A stretch of 52,050 nt of DNA from an uncultured Pseudomonadales bacterium (lineage in GTDB: Bacteria; Patescibacteriota; Microgenomatia; UBA1400; MFAQ01): positions 1-52,050 of the forward strand of contig CAZARR010000006.1 in assembly GCA_964487665.1 (NCBI GenBank), read 5' to 3'. Below the pieces are notes generated by a model. That model was not told where the DNA came from. It saw nothing but the letters and a program-made list of their open reading frames with translations, and ran no database searches. Positions 31,367 through 50,420 of the stretch are shown in pieces; within the stretch, counting starts at the first letter, position 1; each line of letters starts with the position of its first letter. Position numbers and translations under genes: made by a program.

Positions 31367-31431
31367 AAGGCCTGAAGCTCTGTCTGTGTCGCTTCGCTAA
31401 AGTCAGTTTTCTTGGGGGCTGATATTTTAGG

Positions 31432-32129: not shown

Positions 32130-32353
32130 CCTCGTTAATTTTATCACGACGATTTGGATAAAAAGGTCGGGGAACAGCTGTTTTTGTCCTGCCGGTAGGA
32201 CAATAATATGCTGAAATCGTCCTATGGACAGTTTTCCCAGAACACTTTTGTTGGAGTAAACGGAAAGTAAGTTGTCCGCTGTGAAAGTTAGCGCGTTGTT
32301 GTTTGACCCTCTTCTTGTGTATTGTGATCTAGTCTGGGAAAATTGGCCCGCTA

Positions 32354-33418: not shown

Positions 33419-33440
33419 CCTATAGTTGTATAATAGGGGT

Positions 33441-34676: not shown

Positions 34677-34701
34677 TTATTTCGTCTGTTACTATTATGT
34701 G

Positions 34702-35274
34702 GTGAAGAAGCTGGCGTACGTAATTTCTAGGGTTTTTGACCCGGTTTTTCTGATTCCGCTGATGTTGACAGCGGCGGTGTATTACGCTTTGACAAATGGT
34801 CTCAGGTTTAGATTTTTGATGTTTTTGCTGTTTACGGATGCTCTGTTGCCTGCGGCCTATTTTGTTTGGGGTATTGTCACCAAGCGAATCTCAGACTGGG
34901 ACATGACCAAAAGAGAGGAACGGTACGGATTGTATATTTTCGTGGCTATTACCCACGCAGTGGGAGTGGTCTACGCGTATTTGCTGGGCAAGACCGAGAT
35001 GGCGGCGATTTTGTTTGTATTCTGGTCGTTGGCAGTGGTGTTTGCCTTAATCACGAACTATTGGAAGATATCGGTTCACGCCGGGGTGAATGGATTGATG
35101 GTGGCTTTTTTTAACCACTTTTGGGGTTGGGACAAGTACTGGTGGCTAGTGTTGCTGTTGCTTCTGGTTTTGTGGGCCAGGGTAGAAATCAAAAAGCATA
35201 CTTGGGCCCAGGTGGTTGCGGGGTCGGTTCTGGCAATTGCCTGGACTCAGGTGGGCCTGAGTTGGTTGGTGTAG
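34702..35274 (+). CDS. Polytopic membrane protein, PAP2-like
   Basis: Several TM segments, WKISVHA, ARVEIKKHTWAQV. Confidence 0.7.
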   Translation: MKKLAYVISRVFDPVFLIPLMLTAAVYYALTNGLRFRFLMFLLFTDALLPAAYFVWGIVTKRISDWDMTKREERYGLYIFVAITHAVGVVYAYLLGKTEMAAILFVFWSLAVVFALITNYWKISVHAGVNGLMVAFFNHFWGWDKYWWLVLLLLLVLWARVEIKKHTWAQVVAGSVLAIAWTQVGLSWLV

Positions 35275-35284
35275 TATTTGTCTT

Positions 35285-36772
35285 GTGCCGGGTCGAATGA
35301 AATTATTGTGGTTGCTATTCCTGGTGGCTTTTTGCTTGGTATTGTCACGTCTATTTTTTTTACAAGTGGTGATGGGAAACTACTACAGAGATTTGGCCAG
35401 TGAAAATAGAACCAGGCAAATAAAAATTCCAGTAGAAAGGGGAAAGATATTGGATCAAAGAGGCGAGATATTGGCGCAGAACAAAAACAATGGCGAGAGA
35501 GACTATCGATATTATCCAGACGGGGAAATCGTGGCAAGTGTAGTGGGGTTTTTTCAAAACGGGTTGGGAGTGACCGGTTTGGAAAAAAGTTACAATGCGA
35601 GTCTGGCAGGAACCGAGGGGAATAAACTGGTAGAGTTTGACGCTTTTGGGAAACAAACAAATGTTCTGGCAGAACAGCCGGGAAGCCAGGGGGAGGACTT
35701 GCAAACCAACCTCGATCTACGTTTGCAAAAATTTGTTTATGGGGTCTTGCGCGATGTTTTGCGTCACAGCGGGGTATCAGCAAGCAGTGTGATCGAGCGG
35801 GTGGATGGAAGGGTCGTCTCTTTGATCAGTCTTCCTTCTTTTGACCCAAACTTGTTTGTGGGCAGATTTGAAAGGGGGAGCGCAGGGGGTGATTACGCAT
35901 CGGTCGAGAGTGTTCTTGGTGATACCAACAAAAAACCATTATTCAACAGGACAATTTCTGGTGTTTTTCCGCCGGGCTCGGTTTATAAATTGATTGTAGC
36001 TACGGCTGGTCTCGAAGAAGGGAAAGTATCAAAGGATACCCTGATCGAAGATACTGGCGAGATACGTTTGGACAAATATCGTTTCGGAAATTGGTACTTT
36101 GATCAATATGGGCGAACCGAGGGGGAGATAAATTTGGTTAGGGCGCTGGCCCGCTCTAACGATATTTATTTTTATCGTCTGGGCGAAAAACTGGGTGTAG
36201 ATAACCTGGTTGGTTGGTCAAAAAAGTTTGGACTAGGCAAAAAAACGGGAATTGATTTACCCGGGGAGTCAGCTGGGCTTGTTCCCGATCCACTTTGGAG
36301 CGAGCGAAACAAGGGTGAAAAATGGTTCTTGGGAAACACGTATCACTTAAGCATCGGACAAGGTGACTTGTTGGTTACCCCTTTGCAGATAAATAGGGCT
36401 ACGGCCAGTATTGTCAGTGGTAAGCTTTGTATCCCGAGGTTGGTGGGGACTGGTAAATGTGAGGCGATCAACACCAAGGCACAAAACAGGGAATTAATTT
36501 TGGCGGGCATGAAAGCGGCCTGTACCACAGGAGGAACTGCTTTCCCTTTTTTTGACTTTGATGGGGTCGTTTACTGCAAAACAGGTACGGCGCAGCATGG
36601 GGGTGAAGACAACAAACCTCATGCGTGGATCAGTGTGGTAATACCCGACCAGAAAGGGTCCATCGGGGATGGTTATGTGATTACTGTAATGATAGAAGAT
36701 GGGGGTGAGGGAAGCGAGGTAGCTGGGGGGGTTGCGCGCAAAATTGTTGACTATTTAGCGGAGTCTTTTTGA
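35285..36772 (+). CDS. mrdA: Class B penicillin-binding protein 2 (shortened pedestal domain)
   Basis: PGSVYK (SxxK), SNDIYF (SxD), KTGTAQ, RGKILD. Confidence 0.9.
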   Translation: MPGRMKLLWLLFLVAFCLVLSRLFFLQVVMGNYYRDLASENRTRQIKIPVERGKILDQRGEILAQNKNNGERDYRYYPDGEIVASVVGFFQNGLGVTGLEKSYNASLAGTEGNKLVEFDAFGKQTNVLAEQPGSQGEDLQTNLDLRLQKFVYGVLRDVLRHSGVSASSVIERVDGRVVSLISLPSFDPNLFVGRFERGSAGGDYASVESVLGDTNKKPLFNRTISGVFPPGSVYKLIVATAGLEEGKVSKDTLIEDTGEIRLDKYRFGNWYFDQYGRTEGEINLVRALARSNDIYFYRLGEKLGVDNLVGWSKKFGLGKKTGIDLPGESAGLVPDPLWSERNKGEKWFLGNTYHLSIGQGDLLVTPLQINRATASIVSGKLCIPRLVGTGKCEAINTKAQNRELILAGMKAACTTGGTAFPFFDFDGVVYCKTGTAQHGGEDNKPHAWISVVIPDQKGSIGDGYVITVMIEDGGEGSEVAGGVARKIVDYLAESF

Positions 36773-36782
36773 AAAATAAAAA

Positions 36783-37556
36783 ATGCTAGACAGGTGGGAG
36801 ATCGTACAGATGGTTGAGCGAGGAGTGAAAAGAAAAGTGATCCTAAGTTACGTGGTAAATTCGGGTATCCAGCAGCGGATTAAAATATCTAGTACCCCGA
36901 GTAATATTTGTGATCGCTATCAAAAAGAAGGGGTTGAGGTTGTCGTCTATGGGGAAGAGGGTTATCCACAAGCGCTGATGGAAATTGATGACCCTCCGGT
37001 GGTGATTTTTTATCGAGGAAAATTACCCAAACAAGATGAAAAGTTGTTGGCGGTAGTTGGGTCTCGGGCTGCCAGCTGGCAAGGGATTAGAAATTGTCAA
37101 AAGTTTGTAAGGGGTTTGGTGAAAAAAGATGTTGTAGTCGTTTCGGGTTTGGCTGTCGGAATTGATCAAGAAGCCCACCGGACTTGCCTGGAAATGGGAG
37201 GAAAGGCGGTTGCAGTGGTGGCTACCGGGTTGGAGCGAATTTATCCTGCTAGTGCAGCGGATCTTTCGAAAAGAATTATCCAAACAGGCGGATGCATAAT
37301 GACCGAGCAACCACTGGGGGCAAAAGTCGAAAGGTGGCATTTTTTGGCTAGGAACAGAATTGTGGTGGGTCTGGCTATTGGTGTATTGGTGGTTGAGGCG
37401 AGCAGATTTTCGGGCAGCACCAGTACTCCAAATTTTGCTCTGGATCAGGGCAAAGAGGTGTGGTGTGTGAAAGATAGGCCACTGTCTAGTGGACTGGAAG
37501 AGCTAATTGAGGACGGGGCAATTGCGGTTGAAGGTCCAGAGCAGATGATATATTAG
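36783..37556 (+). CDS. dprA: DNA-processing protein DprA
   Basis: AVVGSR, VSGLAVGIDQEAH, FLARNRIV, VVEA...SGS. Confidence 0.95.
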   Translation: MLDRWEIVQMVERGVKRKVILSYVVNSGIQQRIKISSTPSNICDRYQKEGVEVVVYGEEGYPQALMEIDDPPVVIFYRGKLPKQDEKLLAVVGSRAASWQGIRNCQKFVRGLVKKDVVVVSGLAVGIDQEAHRTCLEMGGKAVAVVATGLERIYPASAADLSKRIIQTGGCIMTEQPLGAKVERWHFLARNRIVVGLAIGVLVVEASRFSGSTSTPNFALDQGKEVWCVKDRPLSSGLEELIEDGAIAVEGPEQMIY

Positions 37557-37563
37557 ATCTTTA

Positions 37564-39561
37564 ATGAAACTGCTAATAGTCGAGTCACCAACGAAAACAA
37601 AAAGTATTTCAAAATACTTGGGTAACGGTTACGAGGTTCTGGCTACCATGGGGCATATGCGTGATTTACCCAAAAGCAAGATGGGGATCACCATTGAGGA
37701 AGAAAAGTTTGTGCCCGATTACCAAATTGTTCAGGGTCGGGACAAACAAGTAAAAAAAATTATTGCGGCGGCAAAAAAAGCGGAGCAGGTGGTGCTGTCA
37801 ACCGATCCTGACCGCGAAGGAGAGGCAATTGCTTGGCACGTGTCTGAGGTGTTGATAGACAAGGATAAAAAAATAGAAGACAAGTTGGTAAGGGTGGTGT
37901 TTCACTCAATTACCAAGGAGGCTATTCAGGACGCAATAAAAAATCCACGTAAGATCGATATGAACTTGGTTGACGCACAGCAAGCGCGGCGGATTTTAGA
38001 TCGATTGGTGGGTTACAAGTTATCGCCTTTATTGTGGCAGAAAGTACGTCGAGGCTTGTCGGCTGGTCGGGTGCAAAGCGTGGCCGTAAGATTGGTTGTT
38101 GATCGGGAGCGTGAGATCGAGGCGTTTAAGAGTGAAGAGTATTGGGAGGTTAGTGTTGAGGTTGTTTGTAAGAATGGTCAATTTTGGGTCGAATTGGTCA
38201 AAGTTGGGGGTAAAAAGGCAACGGTTGTAAGTGCAGAGCAGGCTAGGGAAATTGAAATTGATTTAAAACAAGCATCTTTGTGTGTTGATGAGGTATTGCG
38301 AAAAGAAAGAAAAAGCGATCCCTATCCACCATTCAAGACTTCAACTCTTCAGCAGGCAGCGGCAAACGTTTTGGGTTGGTCAAGCAAAAAGTCGATGAGT
38401 GTGGCTCAAAAGCTATATGAGCTTGGACATATTACCTATCATCGAACCGACTCGTTGAATTTAGCGGGCAGTGCGCTGGAGGGAATTAGGGAATTTATAA
38501 ATAAAGAATGGGGGGCAGAGTATCTTCCAATAAAAGCAAGGTTTTACAAAACTTCGGGCAAGGTCGTGGCTCAGGAAGCCCATGAGGCGATTCGGCCAAC
38601 AAATTTTACAGTCGGCCCTAATAGCTTTGTTGGTGAAGGTCTGATGGGAAAGGATCTGGAAAAACTTTATGGTCTGGTCTGGCGGAGAACGATTGCTTGC
38701 CAGATGGCTCAGGCGGTATTTGATGTTACCAAGGTGACGGTGGTAGCGGATAAATATCAACTGCAGGTGATTGGCGAAACTGTCAAGTTCGATGGCTGGC
38801 GCAAACTTTACAAAAAGAATGACGAACAGGTGTTGCTACCCGAGGTAGAAAAAGGCGAGGTTTTGACGCAGAAACAGATCAAGACAGTTCAGAAGTTTAC
38901 CCAACCGCCACCACGTTACAATGATGCCTCGCTGGTGAAAGAGATGGAAAAACGGGGAATCGGTAGGCCCAGCACATATGCACCAACCATCAGCACAATT
39001 ATCGACAGACGGTATGTTGAGCGAAAAGATCGAAAGTTTTTTCCGACAGCGATAGGGATTGCTGTCAACGATTATCTGACCAAAAACTTTATTGAAGAGA
39101 TGGAATATTCGTTTACGGCGGACATGGAAGGGCGCCTGGATGATATTGCCAAAGGGAAACTGGGATGGATGAAGATGCTGGCAAAGTTTTATCAACCGTT
39201 CGAAAAAAAGGTAAAGTTGGCAGGAAAGAATTCAGAACGGGTTGGGGTAGAGACAGAAAAAACAGGCAGACCCTGTCCTGATTGTGGTAGTGAACACAAA
39301 GGCGAAATTGTTATTCGTGAAGGTAGATTTGGTAAGTTTTATAGTTGTAGCAGGTTCCCGGAATGCAAGTATACAGCGCGATTAATTTTGTATGTCGAAG
39401 GGGCCAAATGTGAGAAGTGTAAAAGTAAGGTTGTAATAAAGAGAACAAAGACTGGTAGGGAATTTTACGGTTGCGAAAAGTATCCCAAATGTGATTGGGC
39501 GAGTTGGAAGATGCCTAAACGAGCTGGGGTGGATGAGGAGTCTGGGGATCGTGAGGCTTAA
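37564..39561 (+). CDS. topA: DNA topoisomerase I
   Basis: IVESP, TDPDREGE, ITYHRTDS, GIGRPSTYA, C-terminal Zn ribbons. Confidence 0.98.
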   Translation: MKLLIVESPTKTKSISKYLGNGYEVLATMGHMRDLPKSKMGITIEEEKFVPDYQIVQGRDKQVKKIIAAAKKAEQVVLSTDPDREGEAIAWHVSEVLIDKDKKIEDKLVRVVFHSITKEAIQDAIKNPRKIDMNLVDAQQARRILDRLVGYKLSPLLWQKVRRGLSAGRVQSVAVRLVVDREREIEAFKSEEYWEVSVEVVCKNGQFWVELVKVGGKKATVVSAEQAREIEIDLKQASLCVDEVLRKERKSDPYPPFKTSTLQQAAANVLGWSSKKSMSVAQKLYELGHITYHRTDSLNLAGSALEGIREFINKEWGAEYLPIKARFYKTSGKVVAQEAHEAIRPTNFTVGPNSFVGEGLMGKDLEKLYGLVWRRTIACQMAQAVFDVTKVTVVADKYQLQVIGETVKFDGWRKLYKKNDEQVLLPEVEKGEVLTQKQIKTVQKFTQPPPRYNDASLVKEMEKRGIGRPSTYAPTISTIIDRRYVERKDRKFFPTAIGIAVNDYLTKNFIEEMEYSFTADMEGRLDDIAKGKLGWMKMLAKFYQPFEKKVKLAGKNSERVGVETEKTGRPCPDCGSEHKGEIVIREGRFGKFYSCSRFPECKYTARLILYVEGAKCEKCKSKVVIKRTKTGREFYGCEKYPKCDWASWKMPKRAGVDEESGDREA

Positions 39562-39964
39562 ATTCAGCAATAGTTTGTGGTAAGTAGGCACGCAAACGGC
39601 TTTGCACTCTGTTAAAAAGATTGTCCATTCGAGACACAGATGGGGGTAGGTTTTGAGGGCGTTGTTCTAAAATTATTTTGCTACTCAGGCCAAAAATGTG
39701 GTGGAATAAAAAAGCAATTAGAATTTCAGGTTTTAAATCAACTCCCCAGGCATGAGGTCCAGATTGTTCGAGGTGTCGTAATAATAATCTACGAACAATT
39801 TCTTTGGCGTGAGGGGACAAGTCAGATTGACGAGTCATCCCCGACAAAAATGTCTGCCACACTTTGGCATCGATTGTGTTGATCATAAGCTCAACTGTTT
39901 TTTCGGGCCCCAAATTTTGGGAAATTAGTGCAAGCCCAGCATCAGCGAGTTCTTTGTTGGCCAT
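39515..39964 (-). CDS. Hypothetical protein
   Basis: 149-aa ORF; TATAAT 7 nt before the ATG; 3' end overlaps topA. Confidence 0.55.
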   Translation of the reverse strand: MANKELADAGLALISQNLGPEKTVELMINTIDAKVWQTFLSGMTRQSDLSPHAKEIVRRLLLRHLEQSGPHAWGVDLKPEILIAFLFHHIFGLSSKIILEQRPQNLPPSVSRMDNLFNRVQSRLRAYLPQTIAEFKPHDPQTPHPPQLV

Positions 39965-40018
39965 CGAGCGAATTATACTGGTTGACTGACAGTTCTGAAG
40001 GGGTTATTCTCACCTGAA

Positions 40019-41653
40019 ATGATTCCTATCGAGGCAAGAGATCGTGTGGTTTTTAGGAATGGGGATGCACAGTATGTGATGCCTGGGTTTGAAGGTCTTG
40101 TCGCCGGCATTCTGTCGCGTGAAAAGATGGGGACATTAGGGGCAATTTTGACTAACCCCGGTGGAAGTATTTCAGCTATTAGACCAGGGGTGCCCGAAGA
40201 ATTGGCGGCGGCAATAATTGCCAGAGTTAGTCGGTCTCCGTGGGATGATCTGACTGAACTGATTTGGAGAGAGTTTGTTCCATCTCTGGGTGACTTTGGT
40301 GTCAGCCACAGTCTTGGCAGTGCGGATTTATCTAGGGTTAGGAGAATGATTGCGAGGGTGGTTGATGGGTATGGTGACGATTCGGTGAGGGAAGCTTCGA
40401 CAAGTAGAGTGTTGCTCTCGGGCCAACTGCTGCCGTTGCTTTCGGGAGTTTTTGGTCCGCTGGTTGGTGGAATCGAAAGATCAACTCGATATGTAAAGTG
40501 GGACGAGCGAATTAATGGTAAGTATCGATACAGTCAGCCAAATGAAATTATGCAGTCTCGGTTTGCTGAAGGATATGTGGCAACAATGGATAGTTTATTT
40601 GAAACGTATTCACAACTTTGGCCATCTGTTTGGAAGTATGTTGAGGAAAATCATCCCAATATTAGTGGTTTGTCTGAGGTTGGTTACCGTCAAGCTATTC
40701 ACGCAAAAGTTTGTGATATTTTGCGTAAATTGTTGCCTTTGGGAATTACCACGTCATATGGTTTGGTGGCCTCGGCCAGGACGTTTTCGGAGGTAGTTTT
40801 AAATCTGCGAGCGAGTCCAATTGGTGAGGTGCGTAGAATGGCCGATGAAATGGCTAGGGAACTGTTGATAGTTAACCCATCGTTTTATCAGATATTAGAA
40901 TCAGAAAGTGAAAACGGTCGAGGTTGGACAGCTCATCAAATTCATTTACGGTCCCTAGTAAAAAAGACTCCTCAGCAAAGTCAGGGTGGGTGGGGGTTTG
41001 ACAGTAGTGTTCAATTGGAGGTGCTTAACGCTGATTATCGGCAGGATTTGCAGAGAGCGTTGGGCGTAGATTACGGAATTGAGGATGGTGATGTTGTCGA
41101 GTTTCTGGCTGCAGTAGGCAGGGGGAGGACAAATCGTAGACATAAATTACCGGAGGGGTTAAGTAACGTTATCGCAAGGGTGTCTTTGCATGACGTGTCG
41201 TTTAGCGTACTTAAGGACTTTCTAAGACATAGAAATAGGGTGTGGTTGGGAGAACCAAGCTGGGAGGGGATGGGGTATTATGTGCCTCATGAAATTAAAG
41301 AGATGGGTGGAGAAGTTTTGTTGGCGTATACCCAGGCACAACAAATGGCAATTGACACTTACCTTGAAATGGTTCCCGAATTAGGGGCGGAAGCAAGAAG
41401 AATGTTGACTCACGGTAGCCTGACAGACGTGAATTGGACCTTGACCTTGGGGAACTTGTATTGGATATGCGAACTAAGGTCTCAGGCGGGTGGTGATATC
41501 GAGTACGTTCGGTTGGCGCAACAAATGTGGCGAGAGGCAGTGCGGGAAATACCAGAAATAGAACATCTCGGGAGTTTTGTTAACTTAGGGGAGGTGGGTT
41601 TGGGGAGAACAGGGGAAATAAAAAGAAGAGAAGCGAGAGCACAAAAAAACTAA
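40019..41653 (+). CDS. thyX: Two-domain FAD-dependent thymidylate synthase (ThyX-like)
   Basis: ERSTRYV and DILRKLLP in the N-domain; DFLRHR and CELRSQAGG in the C-domain. Confidence 0.75.
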   Translation: MIPIEARDRVVFRNGDAQYVMPGFEGLVAGILSREKMGTLGAILTNPGGSISAIRPGVPEELAAAIIARVSRSPWDDLTELIWREFVPSLGDFGVSHSLGSADLSRVRRMIARVVDGYGDDSVREASTSRVLLSGQLLPLLSGVFGPLVGGIERSTRYVKWDERINGKYRYSQPNEIMQSRFAEGYVATMDSLFETYSQLWPSVWKYVEENHPNISGLSEVGYRQAIHAKVCDILRKLLPLGITTSYGLVASARTFSEVVLNLRASPIGEVRRMADEMARELLIVNPSFYQILESESENGRGWTAHQIHLRSLVKKTPQQSQGGWGFDSSVQLEVLNADYRQDLQRALGVDYGIEDGDVVEFLAAVGRGRTNRRHKLPEGLSNVIARVSLHDVSFSVLKDFLRHRNRVWLGEPSWEGMGYYVPHEIKEMGGEVLLAYTQAQQMAIDTYLEMVPELGAEARRMLTHGSLTDVNWTLTLGNLYWICELRSQAGGDIEYVRLAQQMWREAVREIPEIEHLGSFVNLGEVGLGRTGEIKRREARAQKN

Positions 41654-41691
41654 GTGATTGACCTTGGCAATTTTTCTGGTATGTTCGTGGG

Positions 41692-42936
41692 GTGGCAATA
41701 CGAGAGGGTGAAAGAGCTAGATATATAAGGGAGTTTCAAAACGCGAGAATATTTAAGGATCCGTGGTTTTGCCAGCCAATTGCACCCCTTGATAATCTTC
41801 CTGAAGATCTAAGACCAATATTTCCAAATGTTAAACGTGTAATACTTGAGGGTCCCAACGGAATTGGAAAATCGTCTATTAGCGGAGGTGTCTTGCGACT
41901 ATATCATGCTTTGGGAATTGCACTCGGGGGTTTGAATTCTGGTGAGAAGGCACCTTGCCTGGTGGGGTACGCTGAACCACCTCCAATACCATTAATCCCT
42001 GGACTACCGGGAACAACATATCGTGGAATGGCCAAATCGGGGTTTGACCCCGAAGGGATCACCAATGGGAGAAACGCACAGGTGGCGGAGGGAGACCCCG
42101 CAGTCCAATTCTATTATTTTATGCAAGGTAGAAGGTTGATGCAAGAGGAATGGTTGCAACAACTGGTTGGGCCAGGCGATCCGTATGCTAGAAACAATCG
42201 GTTATTTAATTATGCAAGTTGGTATACAAGGGCTCTATCCAAATGGCCATTAGACGCTTATCAATGGCAAAATGGACTTTCTGGCGTAGAAAAAGCAATT
42301 GCAGTGTCGGACCGTGAAATCATATCTACCATCTATTACCAGGGGAGAGGTGTTCGCTGGGGAGGGCGCCTGATAGACGAGACACAACGGATTTATTCAA
42401 CGGGTTATTTGTTACCAAGTGACCTAGCTTTGATGATTGTGCCACACAAACCGGATGATTTTAGAGTCAATCCAGAGCGCGACCCTGGGGATCTTTATTC
42501 CCGTCACGATTACAAGATGCGCGAGGCAGTGGGGGGTTATATCTGGGCTGCAAGGAAGGCGATAGAGATGGGTGCCGTGCGTGATGTGATTTATCTGGAG
42601 AATGATCCATCGGGGCATCGTCACGATGTCTCTGAATCGAGTTTTGCGGCAGCATGGTTGATCTACGTGCTAGAGCGTATAGGCAAAATAGAACGAGACA
42701 CAGTTTATTCATTACCGTGCAATCTGTATGTGTTGATTAATCTACTACATCGGTCTATTTACGGTATTCCTTATTCAAGGAATTTGGGTAGATTTTTTGC
42801 TAGGGTTGCTGAGTGGGATATAAATTCTGCATGTTGGTCAAAAACATTACAATTTGGTCAATTAGAATTTCTTGGTATGAAAGATACGAATCTGTCCTTT
42901 CGAGTTAACAGTAGCATGGATTTTTTGGAAAATTAG
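41692..42936 (+). CDS. Thymidylate/dNMP kinase-like P-loop protein with large insertions
   Basis: VILEGPNGIGKS Walker A, VSDREIISTIYYQG; follows thyX. Confidence 0.6.
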   Translation: MAIREGERARYIREFQNARIFKDPWFCQPIAPLDNLPEDLRPIFPNVKRVILEGPNGIGKSSISGGVLRLYHALGIALGGLNSGEKAPCLVGYAEPPPIPLIPGLPGTTYRGMAKSGFDPEGITNGRNAQVAEGDPAVQFYYFMQGRRLMQEEWLQQLVGPGDPYARNNRLFNYASWYTRALSKWPLDAYQWQNGLSGVEKAIAVSDREIISTIYYQGRGVRWGGRLIDETQRIYSTGYLLPSDLALMIVPHKPDDFRVNPERDPGDLYSRHDYKMREAVGGYIWAARKAIEMGAVRDVIYLENDPSGHRHDVSESSFAAAWLIYVLERIGKIERDTVYSLPCNLYVLINLLHRSIYGIPYSRNLGRFFARVAEWDINSACWSKTLQFGQLEFLGMKDTNLSFRVNSSMDFLEN

Positions 42937-42956
42937 TGGGGGTGTAGAATCGTTTT

Positions 42957-44264
42957 GTGAGGGATGTAATACTGGATCTTATCAAAAAGGAAGAAAAGCG
43001 GCAGGATCAGACGTTGATGATGATTCCGTCGGAAAATTATACTTATCCCGAGGTGCGAGAAGCTGTGGGTAGTGTTTTGATGCACAAATATGCTGAGGGG
43101 ACGCCGGGAAAACGATATTATCAGGGCAATGGTGTGGTCGACGAGGTAGAGCGATTGTGTCAACAGAGGGCGGTTGAGGCGTTTGAATTGGGTGATGAGT
43201 GGGGGGTGAATGTTCAGCCACATTCAGGAGCGGAAGCAAATCTAATAGCGATAAGTGCCTTGCTAAATCCAGGGGAAAAGATTATGTCAATGTATTTACC
43301 CGACGGTGGACATCTGTCGCACGGATGGCAGAGTGGAGGGAAAAAGTTTCATTTGGTATCTCGTTTTTTTGAGGTCGATTTCTATCGAGTAGACGAGAAG
43401 ACCAGATTATTTGATTACGAACAAGTTGACAAGCAGGCAAAAATATTTAAACCAAAGCTGATTATTTCGGGAGGGACTGCCTACCCTAGGGAAATAGATT
43501 ACCAAAAAATGGCGGGAATTGCTCGTAGTGTGGGGGCGTTTTATTTGGCTGATGTCGCTCACGAGGCGGGATTAATTGCTGGCGGGGTGTGTAGATCGCC
43601 ATTCCCGTATGCAGACGTGGTGACATTGACCACACACAAGACGTTACGGGGGCCACGAGGGGCACTGATATTTGGAAAAAAGGGATTGATGGACAAAATT
43701 GACTTTGCTGTCACTCCTGGTTTTCAGGGTGGGCCTCATTTGAATACTATTGCTGGTATTGCTATTGCTCTAGAAAAAACAAAGTTGTCTGAATTTAAAC
43801 AGTATGCGGCCACAACGGTTGAAAATGCGCAAGAACTGGCCAAGGAGTTGATGGCGAATGGTTTTGATGTAGTCTCGGGGGGCACAGACAAGCATCTGGT
43901 GCTAGTAGATTTGCGCAGCAAAAAAGTGTCAGGGTGGGCTATGGCTTGGGCGGCCGAAAGTGGGAATATTGTAATAAATAGAAATACAGTGCCGAACGAA
44001 ACTGCTTCGGCATACTTTCCTTCGGGGATCAGATTGGGGACACCAGCGTTGACAGTTCGGGGTATGGGCAAAATAGAACTGAAAAAGATCGCTCGTTGGT
44101 TGATAGAGATTGTCAATTTACTATCCAAAGATAAATACAGTTTGGAGGTTACCGATCCGGCAGCGCGGAAGGACTTTCGTGACCGAATCGCGGATGATAA
44201 AGTGATTACTGATATTCGCGAAAAAGTCGTTGACCTATGCAAACAGTTTCCAATTCCCAAGTAA
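42957..44264 (+). CDS. glyA: Serine hydroxymethyltransferase
   Basis: IPSENY, YAEGTPGKRYY, GGHLSHG, THKTLRGPRG. Confidence 0.98.
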   Translation: MRDVILDLIKKEEKRQDQTLMMIPSENYTYPEVREAVGSVLMHKYAEGTPGKRYYQGNGVVDEVERLCQQRAVEAFELGDEWGVNVQPHSGAEANLIAISALLNPGEKIMSMYLPDGGHLSHGWQSGGKKFHLVSRFFEVDFYRVDEKTRLFDYEQVDKQAKIFKPKLIISGGTAYPREIDYQKMAGIARSVGAFYLADVAHEAGLIAGGVCRSPFPYADVVTLTTHKTLRGPRGALIFGKKGLMDKIDFAVTPGFQGGPHLNTIAGIAIALEKTKLSEFKQYAATTVENAQELAKELMANGFDVVSGGTDKHLVLVDLRSKKVSGWAMAWAAESGNIVINRNTVPNETASAYFPSGIRLGTPALTVRGMGKIELKKIARWLIEIVNLLSKDKYSLEVTDPAARKDFRDRIADDKVITDIREKVVDLCKQFPIPK

Positions 44265-45019
44265 CAATATTTGACGGGCGCTCTTTTGCACAAGGTATCG
44301 AGGCAGAGCTGGCCTTGGGAGGCAGACTAAAGGGCAAACAACTGGTGATTATCCAGGCTGACGGTAGCGAGGAGGAAAGTACTTATGTGAGACTAAAACG
44401 GGAGATGGGAGAAAGGTTGGGGGTAAGGGTGGTAGTAAAAATTGTCAAAGGAGGTGGCGAGGTTAAGCGTGAGATAGTTGAGGGGAACAAGGACTCGAAA
44501 GTGTCGGGCGTGTTGGTGCAGTTGCCTATCGATGGTTTGGACAAGACTGAAACTCAAAAAATTGTTGACGAGATCGAACCGGAAAAAGATGTCGATGGTT
44601 TAGGTAGAAATGCAAAGTATTTACCGGCGGCAGTGGTGGCGATAGAAAAAATTTTGGATTTTGCCAAAGACCGTGGGACGTTTGTTAATGATATATTTTG
44701 CACCATAGGGGTGGTGGGTAGTCGAGGTGCTGTGGGTCGCCAGCTGGTAGAGCGTCTGCGAGATATCGGCTATGTAGTGGCTGGATTTGACCAGGGAGAT
44801 GATTTAGGCAAGCTAAAGATGTGCGACGTGGTAATTTCTGTCACTGGTGTAGCGGAGTTAATCAAACCAGAGATGGTAATGGAGGGCGTGGTGGCAATCG
44901 ATGTGGGGTATCCAAAAGGAGATTTTGAGCAAGGGGTAATGAGAAAGGCAAAGTTTTTTTCTCCGGTTCCGGGTGGCGTCGGGCCGGTGACAGTGGCTTG
45001 CCTGTTTACCAAAATGTGA
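44237..45019 (+). CDS. folD: Methylene-THF dehydrogenase/cyclohydrolase
   Basis: VLVQLP, KDVDG, SPVPGGVGPVTV. Confidence 0.93.
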   Translation: MQTVSNSQVTIFDGRSFAQGIEAELALGGRLKGKQLVIIQADGSEEESTYVRLKREMGERLGVRVVVKIVKGGGEVKREIVEGNKDSKVSGVLVQLPIDGLDKTETQKIVDEIEPEKDVDGLGRNAKYLPAAVVAIEKILDFAKDRGTFVNDIFCTIGVVGSRGAVGRQLVERLRDIGYVVAGFDQGDDLGKLKMCDVVISVTGVAELIKPEMVMEGVVAIDVGYPKGDFEQGVMRKAKFFSPVPGGVGPVTVACLFTKM

Positions 45020-45034
45020 TAGTATTGATTGGTT

Positions 45035-45325
45035 ATGACCGAACAAGTAGAAGATAAACAACCATATGTTGTACTTGATATTCGCAAAGAAAGTGGGGTT
45101 GCCAAAATTATCGATTTAGCTAAAGGTAAAACTTTGGCTACTGTTACAAATAAAGGGTCGGGTCGATCATTAGAAGAATTAGCTCGTGAATCAGCGGGAG
45201 AGGCTGGGAAAGTCCCGGTTCGTATCGTAAGAGACGGAATTACTACAGAAAGCCGTGCGACCAGAGAAGAACTTAGGAAAGCTGTTGGGCCTCCTGTGTT
45301 TACCAGAGGAACCGATAGGAAGTGA
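45035..45325 (+). CDS. Hypothetical protein
   Basis: 96-aa ORF. Confidence 0.6.
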   Translation: MTEQVEDKQPYVVLDIRKESGVAKIIDLAKGKTLATVTNKGSGRSLEELARESAGEAGKVPVRIVRDGITTESRATREELRKAVGPPVFTRGTDRK

Positions 45326-45388
45326 TTAGAGGTGGTGTGTGTTTTGCCGGTAGGGGGTTTTTGAGTTATAATCTAGCCATTATTTGAT

Positions 45389-45432
45389 CACACATCTGGG
45401 GGGGATCTCCTGACAAAAACCCGCCAGAGAGG
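45389..45432 (+). promoter_or_regulatory. rpsB leader (uS2 autoregulatory element, putative)
   Basis: CACAC-TCTGG...CCAGA-GAGG architecture resembling known rpsB leaders; TATAAT at 45367-45372. Confidence 0.55.
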
Positions 45433-45446
45433 ATAAAGGAGACAAA

Positions 45447-46262
45447 ATGGCTACCAAAAAGGTTGCAGCAAAGACCGCGGTTAAAGCGGTTAAAAAAGAA
45501 GTTAAGGAAGTAAAGAAGAAAGTTACCAAGAAGGTGTTGGTAGAGAAAAAGCCCGAGGGGGTAATGGGATTGATGGAACAGCTACTAGAAAGTGGTGCCC
45601 ATTTTGGTCACACCGTGAAACGTTGGAACCCCAAAATGAAAAGGTTTGTATGGCAAGAACGGGGTGGGGTGCATATATTCGATCTCGAAAAAACAGCTAA
45701 GCAATTGGAACTGGCAGAGCAAAAATTAAGGGAGTTTGCAGCTGTAGGAAAGAGAATGGTAATGGTGGGGACCAAAAGACAAGCTCGAGATGCTGTTTTG
45801 GAAGCTGCACAGCGGATAGGAATTGCCCGAGTCACTGAGCGGTGGTTGGGTGGGACGATCACCAACTGGGGTCAGATAAAGTCTCGTTTAAATAGATTGG
45901 CAAAACTCAAGGACGACCGAGATACTGGCAAACTTTCTAAATATGTCAAAAAAGAGAGGGTTCTATTTGATAAAGAAATTGAAAAGCTCGAAAGATTTTT
46001 TGGCGGTATTTCTAGTCTCAAAGATTTTCCAGAGGTGGCCATAATTGTTGATACCCACAAAGAAAAGGTGGCGGTTCGTGAAGCAAAGGCTAGGGGAGTG
46101 TTTGTGATTGGGGTGGTTGATACCAATGCAGATCCAGACCTAGTTGATTTGCCGATACCGATGAATGACGATTCAATCGCAGCTATTAAACTAGTTGTTG
46201 ACAGGCTCGCTTTGGCAATCGAAGAGGGTAAAAAAGCAGAGAAAAAGGAGATCAAAAAATGA
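45447..46262 (+). CDS. rpsB: 30S ribosomal protein uS2
   Basis: GAHFGHTVKRWNPKM, VGTKRQA, RWLGGTITN, VDTNADP. Confidence 0.98.
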   Translation: MATKKVAAKTAVKAVKKEVKEVKKKVTKKVLVEKKPEGVMGLMEQLLESGAHFGHTVKRWNPKMKRFVWQERGGVHIFDLEKTAKQLELAEQKLREFAAVGKRMVMVGTKRQARDAVLEAAQRIGIARVTERWLGGTITNWGQIKSRLNRLAKLKDDRDTGKLSKYVKKERVLFDKEIEKLERFFGGISSLKDFPEVAIIVDTHKEKVAVREAKARGVFVIGVVDTNADPDLVDLPIPMNDDSIAAIKLVVDRLALAIEEGKKAEKKEIKK

Positions 46263-46708
46263 TGGACAAAATAGTCAAGTTACGAGAGAAAACCGGAGCA
46301 GGAGTGATGGATGCAAAAAAGGCACTGGAGGAGGCCAAAGGGGATTTGGGTCAGGCTGAGCTGATAATCAAAGAAAAGGGGATTATTAAGGCCGCCAAGA
46401 GGTCAGAAAGGGCTGCTTCTTGTGGCAGAATATATTCTTATTTGCACCAGACCGGTAAGGTGGGGGCGATGGTGGAACTGGCCTGTGAGACAGATTTTGT
46501 GGCCAAAAACGACGATTTTATTCTGTTGTGCAAGGAAATTGCCATGCAGGTGGCCAGTATGAATCCTGAGTCGGTAGAGGTTTTATTGCAACAGGATTAC
46601 ATTCGTGATGGTAGTAAAAAAATCGCCGATTTGGTATCAGAATCAAGCGCCAAAACGGGTGAAAACACCAAGGTGGTGCGATTCGTGCGTTACCAGTTGG
46701 GGGAGTAG
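46259..46708 (+). CDS. tsf: Elongation factor Ts (short form)
   Basis: LREKTGAGVMDAKKAL, CETDFVAK. Confidence 0.95.
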   Translation: MMDKIVKLREKTGAGVMDAKKALEEAKGDLGQAELIIKEKGIIKAAKRSERAASCGRIYSYLHQTGKVGAMVELACETDFVAKNDDFILLCKEIAMQVASMNPESVEVLLQQDYIRDGSKKIADLVSESSAKTGENTKVVRFVRYQLGE

Positions 46709-46768
46709 AGATTGTAAATAATAAATGTTGTGATTTGAAGATAAATAGGGTTGTTGTATAATGCGCGC

Positions 46769-47338
46769 GTGGGGAAAGAGTTTAGTCCGATCGGTTTTGT
46801 ACCGTTAGAATTACGCGATCAAGAGGGTCAAGTGGTGCTGGCTGAGAAAAATTTTCCTGCTCTGGAAAAGATTATCGAGTCTGGTTTGCTGCCACCAAAA
46901 GAGATTTGGAGGTTGTTTCATGGGGTTCACAACTCAGTTTGGGGTAGTATATTTTTCCCTCATTTTCGTGTTGATACCGCATTAGACATTGTGGGAATTC
47001 GATTGTCAATGGCTTATGATGATATACGAAGAGATCGAAAACGAGCTTTACATATAGAACGCACAAATAATTATTTGGCTGCCTGCAAGCAAGCATTCGG
47101 TGCTTTTGTCTGGGTAGAGATTGGGCACGGGGGCTTTGAAAGGTTCGATGGTGAGCATAATTACGAATTTGACCTTGGTCGGATAACAGCACAAGGTTTT
47201 CGTGTTTCCGGGCCAGACAATTACAAAGAGACATTACGTTATTTTGCAGAATATAGACGCAAGATGGAAATTAAAAAAGATTTATTTACTAGATACCATC
47301 TGGCCTGGTTTTTGAATCGGTTGGCTGGTGTAAGATAG
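46769..47338 (+). CDS. Hypothetical protein
   Basis: TATAAT 6 nt before GTG 46769. Confidence 0.65.
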   Translation: MGKEFSPIGFVPLELRDQEGQVVLAEKNFPALEKIIESGLLPPKEIWRLFHGVHNSVWGSIFFPHFRVDTALDIVGIRLSMAYDDIRRDRKRALHIERTNNYLAACKQAFGAFVWVEIGHGGFERFDGEHNYEFDLGRITAQGFRVSGPDNYKETLRYFAEYRRKMEIKKDLFTRYHLAWFLNRLAGVR

Positions 47339-47345
47339 TGGTTAT

Positions 47346-47906
47346 ATGGATCAACAGATAAGAGATTCGTTGACAAGTAAGTTAGAAAAAGTTGTTGAGA
47401 TAGTTCGCGAGGACTTGGCATCGATAAGGACCAGCCGTGCAAAGCCAGATTTGCTCAGCGGGATTGATGTCATAGCCTATGGTGGACAAAAAATGAAGTT
47501 GTTTGAGCTGGCTACTATTACTGCTCCTGATAATAATATGCTGATTATTTCTCCTTGGGACAAAGGAGTAATACAGGATATTGAGAAAGCAATTACCGTC
47601 AGTAACTTGCAGTTGAACCCGACTGTAAGCGGGGATTCGATCAGGGTGGTTATACCGGCTTTGACCGAAGAAAGGCGTCGCGATTTTGTCAAATTGCTGC
47701 ACCAAAAGTTGGAAGCTGGCCGGGTAATGCTTAGGCAGGTTCGCCAGGATGTAAAGGAAGAGGTCGAGGCTAGTGAAAAAAAGGATGGGGTTAGCGAAGA
47801 CGATGTCGAAAGGGTGTTGGAACTAATGGAAAAGACGGTTCACGATTATGGGACAAAGCTGGATGAGATGGGGCGAGTGAAAGAATCAGAGATAATGCAG
47901 GTGTAG
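47346..47906 (+). CDS. frr: Ribosome recycling factor
   Basis: IRTSRA, IEKAI..SNLQLNP, PALTEERRRDFVK. Confidence 0.96.
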   Translation: MDQQIRDSLTSKLEKVVEIVREDLASIRTSRAKPDLLSGIDVIAYGGQKMKLFELATITAPDNNMLIISPWDKGVIQDIEKAITVSNLQLNPTVSGDSIRVVIPALTEERRRDFVKLLHQKLEAGRVMLRQVRQDVKEEVEASEKKDGVSEDDVERVLELMEKTVHDYGTKLDEMGRVKESEIMQV

Positions 47907-47961
47907 GGCCAAATTCGAGGTCTGGAAATTTTTTTCGAGGGATATTATAATGCAGGTTATT

Positions 47962-48003
47962 GTCCGCGGTCGCGTTATGGCGACGCGATTGGCGGACTTT
48001 TTT
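47962..48003 (+). terminator. Long hairpin plus U6 (frr terminator or attenuator of the tRNA-like locus)
   Basis: GTCCGC/GCGGAC outer and GTCGCGTT/GACGCGAT inner stems, then TTTTTT; lies just downstream of TATAAT 47946-47951. Confidence 0.6.
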
Positions 48004-48006
48004 CGT

Positions 48007-48077
48007 GAACACCAACGCCGAATGGAGGCGGCCGGGCATCGTATGCCGGTGGGCTGGTTCGATTCCAGCTGGTGTTC
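48007..48077 (+). tRNA. Non-canonical tRNA-like RNA, anticodon-position CGU (Thr-reading) with atypical acceptor stem
   Basis: GAACACCA/TGGTGTTC 8-bp acceptor, D-loop GG, AT-CGT-AT loop, GCTGG-TTCGATT-CCAGC T-arm. Confidence 0.6.
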
Positions 48078-48155
48078 CTTCCCGCGAAAGCGGGCGTGCG
48101 GGGCAAACCCGTCTGCGTGACAACGATGTACACGCGGGGGTTTGCCCCAAATTAG

Positions 48156-48233
48156 TGGGGGGTCGTCTAAACGGCCTAGGACGGGCGGGCATCTGGTTGT
48201 CTGCCTATTAGGGTTCGAATCCCTACTCCCCAG
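48156..48233 (+). tRNA. tRNA-Gln(CUG)-like RNA with elongated anticodon arm
   Basis: T1-A72, G73, AT-CTG-GT loop on a 7-bp stem with a bulge, 3-nt variable region, TAGGG-TTCGAAT-CCCTA. Confidence 0.7.
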
Positions 48234-48236
48234 TCA

Positions 48237-48280
48237 GTCCCTCCTTCGCGCCTTTGGGCGTGGGGGAGGGACATTTTCTT
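48237..48280 (+). terminator. Intrinsic terminator closing the tRNA-like locus
   Basis: 16-bp stem GTCCCTCCTTCGCGCC/GGCGTGGGGGAGGGAC followed by ATTTTCTT. Confidence 0.75.
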
Positions 48281-48302
48281 TGTGCTAGAATTACTCGAGT
48301 AA

Positions 48303-49388
48303 ATGCAGATTTTGATTTTTTTGTTGATATTGTCAGTATTGGTTTTGATTCATGAGCTAGGTCATTTTGCTGCTGCCAGGATTTTTGGTATTAATGTTGA
48401 GGAGTTTGGGATCGGCTTACCCCCTCGGGCACGAAAGTTATTCAGTCAGGGGGGGACGATTTTTAGTTTGAATTGGTTACCGATAGGTGGTTTTGTCAGG
48501 CTAAAAGGAGAAGATGTAGAAGAAGAGCTGGCGGGAAATGACGTATTTTACAAAAAGAAATTGTGGCAAAAAATGACGGTGGTTTTGGCAGGAGTAGTTA
48601 TGAACTTTTTGTTGGGGGTGGCAATTTTTGGGGCTATTTATTCGTATTTAGGAATACCGACAAAAGTTGATCGAGTACGCATTACCGAGATTGTGCCCGG
48701 TAGTCCGGCCGATGAAGCTAAAATAAAGCCTGAGACTTATGTCTTTCGATTTGTCGGACCGAGTGGGGCGGGGGTTGATGTCAAAGACACAAAGTCGTTA
48801 GTTGAACTGATTAACGAGAACAAAGGAAAAAAGATTACGTTATTGGTATCGGGTGAAAAAAATCCGCAAGAATATCAATCGGTGATGCTTGTAGCACGTG
48901 AGAATCCTCCTGCGGGGCAAGGAGCGTTGGGGGTGGTTTTGTCCGATGTGGAACTGGTCAAATATCCATGGTGGCAGATGCCTTTTCGGGGAGCAAAAAT
49001 TGGTTTATCAGAGGCCATCGCCTGGGGCAAGGAAATTGCTCAGGGTTTGGGGGGGTTGGTGGTCAGGATTTTGTCGGGCAAAGGAATTGGCTCGGACGTG
49101 GCTGGACCAATAGGAATTTATCAGGTTAGTGGGCAGGTGACCAAGTTTGGATTGCTTGCTACTTTGCAGTTTGTAGCAGTGTTGAGCATCAATTTGGCGA
49201 TATTAAACATAATGCCCTTTCCTGCCCTAGACGGCGGAAGAGGAGTGTTTATGCTACTCGAAGGGCTACTCCACAAGGATGTCCGGCGCAAGGTTGAGGC
49301 AAAAATCAATATGGTGGGTATGGCGGCACTAATTGGCCTGATGGTACTGATTACCATGAGAGATATATATAAATTGGTGGTGAAATAA
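48303..49388 (+). CDS. rseP: RIP metalloprotease RseP with PDZ domain
   Basis: IHELGH, NWLPIGGFV, GSPADEA, NIMPFPALDGGR. Confidence 0.93.
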   Translation: MQILIFLLILSVLVLIHELGHFAAARIFGINVEEFGIGLPPRARKLFSQGGTIFSLNWLPIGGFVRLKGEDVEEELAGNDVFYKKKLWQKMTVVLAGVVMNFLLGVAIFGAIYSYLGIPTKVDRVRITEIVPGSPADEAKIKPETYVFRFVGPSGAGVDVKDTKSLVELINENKGKKITLLVSGEKNPQEYQSVMLVARENPPAGQGALGVVLSDVELVKYPWWQMPFRGAKIGLSEAIAWGKEIAQGLGGLVVRILSGKGIGSDVAGPIGIYQVSGQVTKFGLLATLQFVAVLSINLAILNIMPFPALDGGRGVFMLLEGLLHKDVRRKVEAKINMVGMAALIGLMVLITMRDIYKLVVK

Positions 49389-49393
49389 AAGTT

Positions 49394-49741
49394 ATGGCGG
49401 ATGAGAGTTGTGTCTTTTGTCAAATAATAGCTGGTAGGTCTCCTGCTGAGATTGTGTGGGAGAGTGATGAATTTATAGCGATTAAAAATAAGTTTCCCAA
49501 GGCACCCGTCCATTTGTTGGTAATGCCAAAAGCGCACATTGAGAAAAAAAAGTTGGTAGGTAGCAATAATGAGGAATTTTGGGGTAAAATACTCAGATCA
49601 GCATTTGAGGTCATCCGCCAGGAGGGGCTCGACAAATCTGGCTACAAGTTGGTAAATAATGGAGCCGGATACAATCACCTAGAACACGAGCACCTGCACA
49701 TCTTGGGTGGAACTAGCTCAGAACCAGGTGGGGAAACCTGA
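49394..49741 (+). CDS. HIT family nucleotide hydrolase
   Basis: CVFCQII, PKAPVHLLVMPK, HEHLHILGG. Confidence 0.92.
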   Translation: MADESCVFCQIIAGRSPAEIVWESDEFIAIKNKFPKAPVHLLVMPKAHIEKKKLVGSNNEEFWGKILRSAFEVIRQEGLDKSGYKLVNNGAGYNHLEHEHLHILGGTSSEPGGET

Positions 49742-49776
49742 AAAAAATGCACAAGAAAGAGAGGTGTCAAAAGTAA

Positions 49777-49995
49777 ATGAGTTTAGTAGTACAGAAAAAA
49801 AGCGGACAAAGTCAACAACAATTAATAAACGAGTTTAGGCGCTTAACTTTCGAAGACAAGGGTTTGGAAAAGGTAAAGGAAGTAGCCATGGGTGGTTATT
49901 TGAAACCTTCAGCCAAAAAAAATATTAAAAACAGAGAGTGGCGAAAGGAAAACGAGAAGATACGCCGCCGTAATCGCCGAGAAAGGGGTAAATAG
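49777..49995 (+). CDS. rpsU: 30S ribosomal protein bS21 (divergent)
   Basis: LINEFRR, YLKPSAKK, basic tail; upstream of yqeY. Confidence 0.7.
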   Translation: MSLVVQKKSGQSQQQLINEFRRLTFEDKGLEKVKEVAMGGYLKPSAKKNIKNREWRKENEKIRRRNRRERGK

Positions 49996-50420
49996 TGTTG
50001 ATTGATCAAATTCGAACCGATATGGTGGTAGCCCAAAAAAGCCGGGACGTTCGTTTGCTCGGGGTTCTAAGGTTACTGTTGTCAGCTCTAAACTATCGAC
50101 AAATTGATGTTGGGGTAGAGAAGTTCGACCAAGAGATGCAGTTAGCAGTGTTACGTACTGAGGCAAAAAAACGTCAGGAAAGTATTGATATTTTTTCGCA
50201 GGTTGGTGATGCTGCCAGAACCGAACAGGAACAATACGAGCTGACAATCATCATGGGCTATTTACCCGCTCCGATTGGTGAAGAAGTGGTGCGAAAAACT
50301 ATACAGGAGGTAGCAGCAGAAACAGGTAAAACAGGTGGGCCATTGATTGGCGAAGTGGTAAAACGCTTGGGGAGTGGAGTTGATGGGAAACTGGTTGCCA
50401 AACTTGTAGCTTTGTTGTGA
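49995..50420 (+). CDS. GatB/YqeY domain protein
   Basis: EAKKRQESIDIF, YLPAPIGEE, DGKLVAKLV. Confidence 0.88.
   Translation: MLIDQIRTDMVVAQKSRDVRLLGVLRLLLSALNYRQIDVGVEKFDQEMQLAVLRTEAKKRQESIDIFSQVGDAARTEQEQYELTIIMGYLPAPIGEEVVRKTIQEVAAETGKTGGPLIGEVVKRLGSGVDGKLVAKLVALL

Follow-up and report, generated by a model that had tools for sequence, protein, structure and literature searches.

Polycistrons of irregular tRNAs have been described that include G−1 tRNAs with Thr anticodons, which are charged by HisRS and are unused in translation (Mukai et al. 2017, PMC5389517). The published polycistrons are mostly of the 8/4 type (acceptor/T), come from soil metatranscriptomes attributed to acidobacteria, and often lie beside toxin-antitoxin genes (PMC5389517). 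A second precedent is the Bacillus cereus pseudo-tRNA tRNAOther, which acts inside a larger RNA and not in translation (PMC3399842). Among tRNAs that do decode, tRNA-Pyl has the anticodon CUA, a 6-bp anticodon stem with a 7-nucleotide (nt) loop, a 3-nt variable loop, 0 to 1 nt between the acceptor and D-stems, and a tiny D-loop without G18G19 (PMC7609411). Anticodon stems of 2, 3, 6, or 7 bp account for 0.2% of the tRNAs predicted in 42,109 bacterial genomes (PMC13092985). Here we describe two tRNA-like genes, A (48007 to 48078) and B (48156 to 48233), both on the forward strand of a 52,050-nt window, which is contig CAZARR010000006.1 (C6) of an uncultured member of the Patescibacteriota. The source genome (G000; assembly GCA_964487665.1) is a metagenome-assembled genome (MAG) of 979 kb in 44 contigs and is 97% complete. 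We estimate a probability of roughly 0.5 that A and B are a pair of tRNA-shaped, non-decoding RNAs carried in a lineage-specific insertion.

The positions of gene B and of its unusual anticodon arm are as follows.

48156 to 48233, forward strand: B, a tRNA-Gln(CUG)-derived tRNA-like gene with an expanded D-loop and anticodon arm (from sequence, fold, and alignment).
48184 to 48190 paired with 48199 to 48205, forward strand: anticodon arm of B, with the loop at 48191 to 48198 and the CTG triplet at 48193 to 48195 (from sequence, fold, and homology numbering).

The sequence of B, TGGGGGGTCGTCTAAACGGCCTAGGACGGGCGGGCATCTGGTTGTCTGCCTATTAGGGTTCGAATCCCTACTCCCCAG (78 nt), can be drawn as a cloverleaf in which 23 of 23 pairs are standard and no stem is mismatched. 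The acceptor stem, UGGGGGG/CUCCCCA, has 7 bp beginning with U1-A72 and including one G·U, and its 3′ strand is followed by G73 and its 5′ strand by the 2 nt UC, with U8 present. The D-arm consists of the stem GUCU/GGAC and a loop of 10 nt that includes GG, and the T-arm, UAGGG-UUCGAAU-CCCUA, is canonical, with a 5-bp stem and a 7-nt T-loop. An earlier note on this DNA had claimed that the interval forms a Gln-type RNA with U1-A72, G73, and CUG, that its D- and T-stems are separated by 26 nt, and that its anticodon stem has either 7 bp with a bulge or 8 bp closed by a 6-nt loop, and the sequence bears out this description. The distance between the D- and T-stems is exactly 26 nt (48183 to 48208). 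Within it, GGCGGGC pairs with GTCTGCC over 7 bp, two of them G·U, around the 8-nt loop AUCUGGUU, and one extra A-U pair turns the arm into 8 bp with a 6-nt loop. A T precedes the CTG triplet, and both U33 and G37 are present. B retains the Gln-type marks U1-A72, G2-C71, G3-C70, G10, U33, C34-U35-G36, and G37 in a molecule that departs from the canonical 5-bp anticodon stem and 7-nt loop, having 7 bp and an 8-nt loop as drawn and a 10-nt loop region by homology.

Homology was judged against the genome's own canonical tRNAs, here called resident. ARAGORN found 43 tRNAs in the genome, including a canonical tRNA-Gln(CUG) on contig C22 (C22:12990-13063), a tRNA-Gln(UUG) on C12, and a tRNA-Thr(CGU) on C10. 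B is identical to the resident tRNA-Gln(CUG) at 57/71 aligned positions and shares with it U1-A72, the D-stem GUCU/GGAC, the UCUGC strand, the variable UAU, the T-loop UUCGAAU, and CUG after U33; the 71-nt tRNA-Gln genes of the order are likewise among the closest known counterparts of B. B differs from the canonical gene by 7 extra nt, by G73 in place of A73, and in being missed by both ARAGORN and the Rfam model RF00005. Three of the extra nt are in the D-loop (AAACGGCCUA versus AAUGGUA), one is a G between C25 and position 26, and three are in the anticodon loop, where the alignment sets C-A-U-C-U-G-G-U-U-G in B against U-U-C-U-G-G-A in the resident gene, a region of 10 nt instead of 7. The 3′ strand UCUGC and the variable (C/U)UAU of B align with the resident gene free of gaps.

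By homology, the "7-bp stem" of B is a G26-C44 pair, the normal 5 bp (in which two A-U pairs are now G·U), and a C32-G38 pair, and the variable region keeps its usual length of 4 nt (C44 U45 A46 U48), not 3 nt. The arm numbered in this way therefore holds its extra nt in two places, one before position 26 and three in the loop. Thus, the 3-nt variable region of the earlier note describes the arm as drawn but not the arm by descent, and the note's Gln-type G73, although present in B, is not the base found in the resident tRNA-Gln genes, which carry A73. Relative to other tRNA-Gln genes, B has two-sided changes in the acceptor stem, in the T-stem (U-A and A-U for Y-G and G·U), and in the 26:44 pair. 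B departs from a normal tRNA-Gln at five separate places, more than one indel could account for. We conclude from the alignment that the resemblance of B to tRNA-Gln is far beyond chance and clearly confirms derivation from that tRNA.

The standard tRNA detectors nevertheless reject B. ARAGORN did not call B at its default setting and gave a different fold at the relaxed -ps80 setting. A permissive Rfam search of 371 nt, in which overlapping matches inside the tRNA clan were reduced to the best one, gave no match of RF00005 to B even at E values up to 10, and the sole tRNA-clan match to B was tRNA-Sec, which scored 17.2 bits in another register. No Rfam family was assigned to B, to A, or to the hairpins around them by gathering thresholds or by E-value scans, and the weak matches to tRNA-Sec, SpF41, and mascRNA were due to chance or driven by the T-arm. 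An intron within B was also considered, but ARAGORN offered only a low-quality "tRNA-Ala" with a 4-nt intron that borrows an upstream hairpin as its acceptor. We rejected the intron because it competes with that stable hairpin, the segment of which (48079 to 48155, containing both of the hairpins between A and B) folds at −45.5 kcal/mol with a z score of −5.6.

Folding with ViennaRNA extended the anticodon arm of B to 9 bp with a 6-nt loop, and the z score was −3.9 for the arm alone and −2.4 for the whole 78-mer. Folding also indicated a competing 5′ hairpin that arises from the D-loop insert, GGUCGU/ACGGCC (6 bp, G6-U11 with A16-C21), to which the energy model, unreliable for tRNAs, assigned a probability of about 0.73 versus about 0.21 for the D-stem. 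The competitor is predicted to sequester U8, G10, and G18G19, and the cloverleaf is 5.4 kcal/mol less stable than the minimum-free-energy fold.

Natural genes that resemble B in the anticodon arm were among the matches listed in pattern scans of metagenomic and viral contigs. An IMG/VR viral contig (L408 6943-7097) and two metagenomic contigs (L280 675-900 and L291 8049-8275) carry arrays of two or three tRNA-Gln genes, and in one copy per array the D-stem is followed by an extra nt, the anticodon stem has 6 bp, and the variable loop is UAU (3 nt), a Pyl-like layout. These copies resemble B in the D-stem, the one extra nt, a Watson-Crick 26:44-type pair, the 5 bp that follow, and the UAU before the T-stem, and the L408 copy is also like B in having G73 and CUG. 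Unlike B, with its 10-nt loop region and larger D-loop, they have the usual loop of 7 nt, ARAGORN calls them tRNA-Gln, and they lie in arrays. The same scans gave a gene resembling tRNA-Gln(CUG) whose anticodon loop has 8 nt (L315) and a similar gene (L295) for which ARAGORN draws an abnormal anticodon loop with two anticodon bases left. In frameshift-suppressor tRNAs with 8-nt anticodon loops, namely, those of the sufD/sufB type and laboratory quadruplet decoders, the stem stays at 5 bp and the D-arm is normal. B would share with them an 8-nt loop, if C32-G38 pairs, in which U33 and the triplet are intact, but it adds nt on both sides of the triplet and has an abnormal stem and D-arm, and a crude scan gave no target site. 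The earlier note's likening of B to tRNA-Pyl, with its long anticodon stem and very short variable region, is apt for B as drawn (PMC7609411), although B departs from tRNA-Pyl on several counts: its triplet is CUG, its stem of 7 bp closes on an 8-nt loop, its acceptor and D-stems are 2 nt apart (UC), and its D-loop spans 10 nt and contains GG.

B does not stand alone. It is one of a series of structured elements between frr and rseP, and the features of that interval, all on the forward strand, are as follows.

47346 to 47906, forward strand: frr, encoding ribosome recycling factor, the upstream flank of the RNA block (Pfam RRF, E = 3e-49).
47923 to 47951, forward strand: promoter-like site TGGAAA-17-TATAAT, overlapping the relic start codon (consensus scan, 10/12 matches).
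47950 to 47964, forward strand: probable relic of an original start of rseP, ATGCAGGTTATTGTC, encoding MQVIV (nearly repeated at the actual start, 48303 to 48315).
47962 to 48003, forward strand: 15-bp hairpin followed by U6, like an intrinsic terminator (block fold and sequence).
48007 to 48078, forward strand: A, an irregular tRNA-like gene with G−1:C73 and the loop AUCGUAU (CGU) (ARAGORN, tRNA-Thr(cgt)).
48081 to 48094, forward strand: small GC hairpin, CCCGC-GAAA-GCGGG (fold).
48100 to 48148, forward strand: very stable 49-nt hairpin between A and B (arms of 11 bp, 100% complementary).
48237 to 48281, forward strand: 16-bp GC-rich hairpin and T-run, an intrinsic terminator after B (terminator scan).
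48303 to 49388, forward strand: rseP, encoding an M50 site-2 protease, the downstream flank (Pfam Peptidase_M50, E = 1e-50).

The acceptor helix of A has 8 bp, formed by an 8-bp inverted repeat in which G48007 pairs with C48077. Its T-arm is canonical, and its anticodon stem contains either a bulged G or a G·G mismatch. The Rfam tRNA model misses A, and only tRNA-Sec matches it, scoring 29.7 bits where the threshold is 47. A combines a histidine-type G−1:C73 end, which the resident tRNA-His likewise has, with a threonine-type CGU triplet. A and B are 77 nt apart on the same strand and have in common the motif CGGnCGGGCAUC, which matches at 11/12 positions, occupies the same relative place in both (from the end of the D-stem into the triplet), and was reached in 11/2000 shuffles. 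The whole 331-nt block (z = −6.1) folds as a string of modules in the order 15-bp hairpin with U6, A, small hairpin, 49-nt hairpin, B, and 16-bp terminator with T-run, and the terminator hairpin after B folds at −33.9 kcal/mol (z = −6.5). The hairpin at 47962 to 48003 is presumably the frr terminator or else the first module of the RNA block. The GC content of the block is 56 to 63%, versus about 44% in the flanks. Two other explanations of the block were rejected: no complementary antisense partner was found in the block, where the single 11-nt match arises from the motif common to A and B, and the block and its hairpins are single copy in the genome, contrary to a repeat or miniature inverted-repeat transposable element.

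The arrangement of A and B in tandem on one strand recalls the polycistrons of Mukai et al., and so does the joining in A of G−1 to a Thr-type anticodon. A is 8/5 and B is 7/5 (acceptor/T), however, rather than 8/4, and no sequence homology with the polycistrons is established. No toxin-antitoxin genes were seen beside A and B, where the neighbors are frr, rseP, HIT, and YqeY. With tRNAOther, B would share the nature of a tRNA-derived element that has no role in translation and is embedded in a longer structured transcript; tRNAOther differs in that it flanks a genomic island and is experimentally supported, and it has no sequence relation to B. By analogy, the irregular-tRNA polycistrons and the B. 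cereus pseudo-tRNA appear to be the nearest published parallels of A and B, while membership in a sequence family is not demonstrable.

The block of about 340 nt that contains A and B reads as a GC-rich insertion seen only in this genome. The genes run rpsB-tsf-hypothetical-frr-block-rseP-HIT-...-YqeY-...-dnaX, and frr-rseP synteny is maintained across the family. The block was absent from the frr-rseP spacers of 29 syntenic relatives, and no tRNA or T-loop was found in any of those spacers, which are 10 to 100 nt long, contain a reverse-strand open reading frame (ORF), or are longer with other content. Six relatives (L045, L051, L053, L058, L059, and L060) have in the spacer a reverse-strand gene (MITDADVKKL..., 110 to 131 amino acids, coiled-coil-like), the region of which is unstructured and has a GC content of 0.34 to 0.40. 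As these six relatives carry another gene in the spacer, the frr-rseP gap seems to be a site where inserts come and go.

Homologues were sought more widely. A covariance model built from B (R1) found only ordinary tRNAs, of the kind of the 71-nt canonical tRNA-Gln, in 150 genomes of the order and 150 of the class, and a model built from A (R2) found only ordinary tRNAs and no homologue of A in the 150 order genomes; model matches of 83 to 89 nt were tRNA-Ser and tRNA-Leu. A BLAST-level DNA search of 61 relatives and a phage collection gave only matches of T-arm length. A pattern scan of public genome contigs gave mostly tRNA-Leu and tRNA-Tyr and no homologue among the matches listed, and the metagenome and viral pattern scans gave mostly chance matches and no homologue of B among those listed. 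An exact 19-mer from the arm of B had no match in viral contigs. The closest RRF among 5.8 billion proteins searched was 65% identical, and there is therefore no sister genome for comparison.

The boundaries of the block bear on how it arrived. The rseP genes of relatives begin MQ[LIV][IV]VF, which the probable relic start resembles, and that relic lies behind a TATAAT box, whereas the real start at 48303 (ATGCAGATTTTG) lies behind a TAGAAT box of its own at 48284 to 48289. The sequence ATGCAGnTTnTTG of the relic start is repeated at 48303, and the two junction regions align weakly (p of about 0.04). An exact 11-mer, ATAATGCAGGT, is also present both at 47892 to 47902, in the 3′ end of frr, and at 47947 to 47957, in the relic rseP start. 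The 11-mer and the copies of MQVIV look like junction repeats of an insertion, and the block may have inserted into the first codons of rseP, with the gene start either duplicated or replaced. Downstream, 1.2 to 1.8 kb 3′ of the A/B pair, lie a HIT-family hydrolase gene (49394 to 49741) and a stand-alone YqeY gene (49995 to 50420). YqeY has homology to the D-loop-binding tail of GatB, and the nearness of YqeY and HIT to the pair is probably ordinary synteny.

The reading that we favor, at a probability of about one-half, is that A and B are tRNA-shaped RNAs that do not decode, or else irregular tRNAs acquired as a pair not long ago. B is a paralogue of tRNA-Gln(CUG) that has kept the upper half of the tRNA, with the acceptor stem, the T-arm, U8, and G18G19; its anticodon region has grown from 7 to 10 nt and closes into a long hairpin, and its D-loop insert could refold the 5′ part. 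Together, A and B are irregular modules, parted by very stable hairpins, in a block of about 340 nt at the rseP start that is probably made as a structured RNA. RNase P and RNase Z, and perhaps further proteins that bind tRNA, may still recognize the two modules, which may serve as processing marks or tRNA mimics that deliver no amino acid at CAG or ACG.

Several observations weigh against this reading. The promoter-like site is weak, as the promoter scan found 3 sites where 1.8 were expected, and a hairpin resembling a terminator separates that site from A. The well-paired stems of B may simply reflect a recent insertion, and the thermodynamic folding of tRNAs is unreliable. The tRNA-Gln genes of L408, L280, and L291, with an extra nt, a 6-bp stem, and a UAU variable loop, pass ARAGORN and occur in tRNA arrays, so part of the oddity of B may suit function. 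Finally, no partner protein or antisense RNA was found near A and B, and no homologue that could be used for covariation was found in the genomes searched (of the order for A, of the order and class for B).

A second account, possible though doubtful, is that A and B are neutral relics, decaying or never-functional copies of foreign and perhaps phage-type tRNAs brought in by a small insertion. That the block is single copy, lineage specific, richer in GC than its flanks, and flanked by the rseP-start repeat is what such an account would lead one to expect, and the anticodon of B duplicates existing ones. G73 of B is found in the tRNA-Gln of other families and of the viral contig L408, unlike the resident A73, and a phage-like contig with other tRNA-like elements is present in the same bin. 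On the other hand, 340 nt of junk is rarely kept by a streamlined genome of 1 Mb. Every stem of B is intact, with its changes relative to other tRNA-Gln genes compensated, the hairpins of the block are near perfect, and a specific motif is common to A and B.

The earlier note had interpreted B as an alternative architecture for decoding CAG. Its description of a tRNA-Gln(CUG)-like RNA with an oversized anticodon arm stands, but we consider it unlikely that B is a working tRNA-Gln isoacceptor, charged via nondiscriminating GluRS and GatCAB, that reads CAG on the ribosome. Gln-tRNA is made by the indirect route in this genome, which has GatB (C10:8488-9354) and a single GluRS-type enzyme (C3:4163-5050). 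B keeps its Gln-type marks with intact acceptor and T arms, and the tRNA-Gln genes with 6-bp stems in one viral and two metagenomic contigs, all within tRNA arrays, show a similar elongation. Stems of 6 bp also work in tRNA-Pyl, tRNA-Sec, and mitochondrial tRNA-Ser(UCN) (PMC7609411). The loop region of B, however, is 10 nt, or 8 nt after C32-G38, and no known natural triplet decoder joins such a loop to a stem of 6 to 7 bp. GluRS needs the anticodon, and the anticodon of B is displaced. Bacterial GatCAB recognizes U1-A72 and does not accept a further base behind G18G19 (PMC2811023). After GG, the D-loop of B reads CCUA where the resident tRNA-Gln reads UA, and these two extra bases would be, by the published rule, a GatCAB antideterminant. 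Moreover, a competing fold is predicted for the D-arm, an extra nt sits at the junction of the D and anticodon arms, and B fails the tRNA models of ARAGORN and Rfam. CAG and ACG are already read by the canonical tRNAs of the genome, so B would be redundant. No counterpart of B was found in the relatives searched, B stands in tandem with the irregular A in a lineage-specific insertion, and a crude scan gave no +1 targets. We conclude that the description of B survives and that its interpretation as a CAG-decoding architecture is not supported.

It is most improbable that an assembly or sequencing error made the odd arm. The genome is a MAG in 44 contigs, the RRF protein of the locus occurs on one contig only, and no second assembly holds the locus. 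Nonetheless, the differences in B lie at five sites, with complementary changes on the two strands among them, the block is bounded on either side by syntenic genes in a contig of 52 kb, and A and three perfect hairpins would need to be artefacts as well.

We give hardly any credence to B as a natural tRNA with an expanded anticodon loop, charged by the Glu/Gln machinery, that works on the ribosome other than by triplets and reads a four-base codon (CAGA or CCAG) or provokes +1 shifts at CAG, or that delivers unamidated Glu at CAG because its enlarged D-loop would escape GatCAB, a reading that, if true, would place a built-in recoding device in a minimal bacterium. A crude scan of 146 +1-overlapping ORF pairs for CAGN/CCAG gave no convincing target. 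The only pair with a CAGN/CCAG site and without a nearby start (C2:5776-7933) shows no sign in Pfam of being one split gene. That pair belongs to a region (C2:5776-8417; L453 776-3417) of three consecutive ORFs, each +1 relative to the preceding one, of which the second and third have no nearby start codon; the first has only weak BNR/Ig-like Pfam matches, and the trio may reflect a disrupted gene or an error of sequencing. Other readings of A and B take up the remainder of the probability.

Other tRNA-like elements were observed in the course of the searches. Contig C1 of the same genome (95 kb, 49% GC) has no tRNA called by ARAGORN, and its interval 30001 to 50000 looks phage-like, with RusA, PHROG matches, mostly unknown ORFs, and tRNA-like elements in the intergenic gaps (C1:38497-38572, C1:36263-36353, and C1:44935-45012; locus L427). 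The element at C1:38497-38572 combines a canonical T-arm with an anticodon-type stem of 7 bp closed by the 8-nt loop UGAUGAUA, and it is called by ARAGORN only at -ps80, as tRNA-?(His|Ser)(atga). In an Acidimicrobiia MAG (L140 7123-7511), three tandem copies with a period of 172 nt repeat an element that ends in a tRNA-like T-arm (…AGGTTCGAATCCCACTCCCTCCGCC). Among the resident genes, ARAGORN called a tRNA-Ile with the anticodon UAU (C2:32878-32952) and a single CAU-anticodon tRNA and found no tRNA-Asn in the assembly. It also predicted a tmRNA (C23:9715-10131) with an unusually long tag of 33 residues (VKKQTDRLANMTVEGFNALFGALATQRPTYAFA), the resume codon of which may be mispredicted.

B should not be annotated as a tRNA-Gln gene, nor A as a tRNA-Thr(CGU). 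With its Gln marks and a predicted GatCAB antideterminant, B would be a handy substrate for finding out which enzymes that handle tRNA still accept it. B also shows in one molecule how three small insertions could turn a working tRNA-Gln into a tRNA-shaped element of this kind. If A and B are expressed, they would be another case in the Patescibacteria of tRNA-shaped RNAs that no longer read codons.

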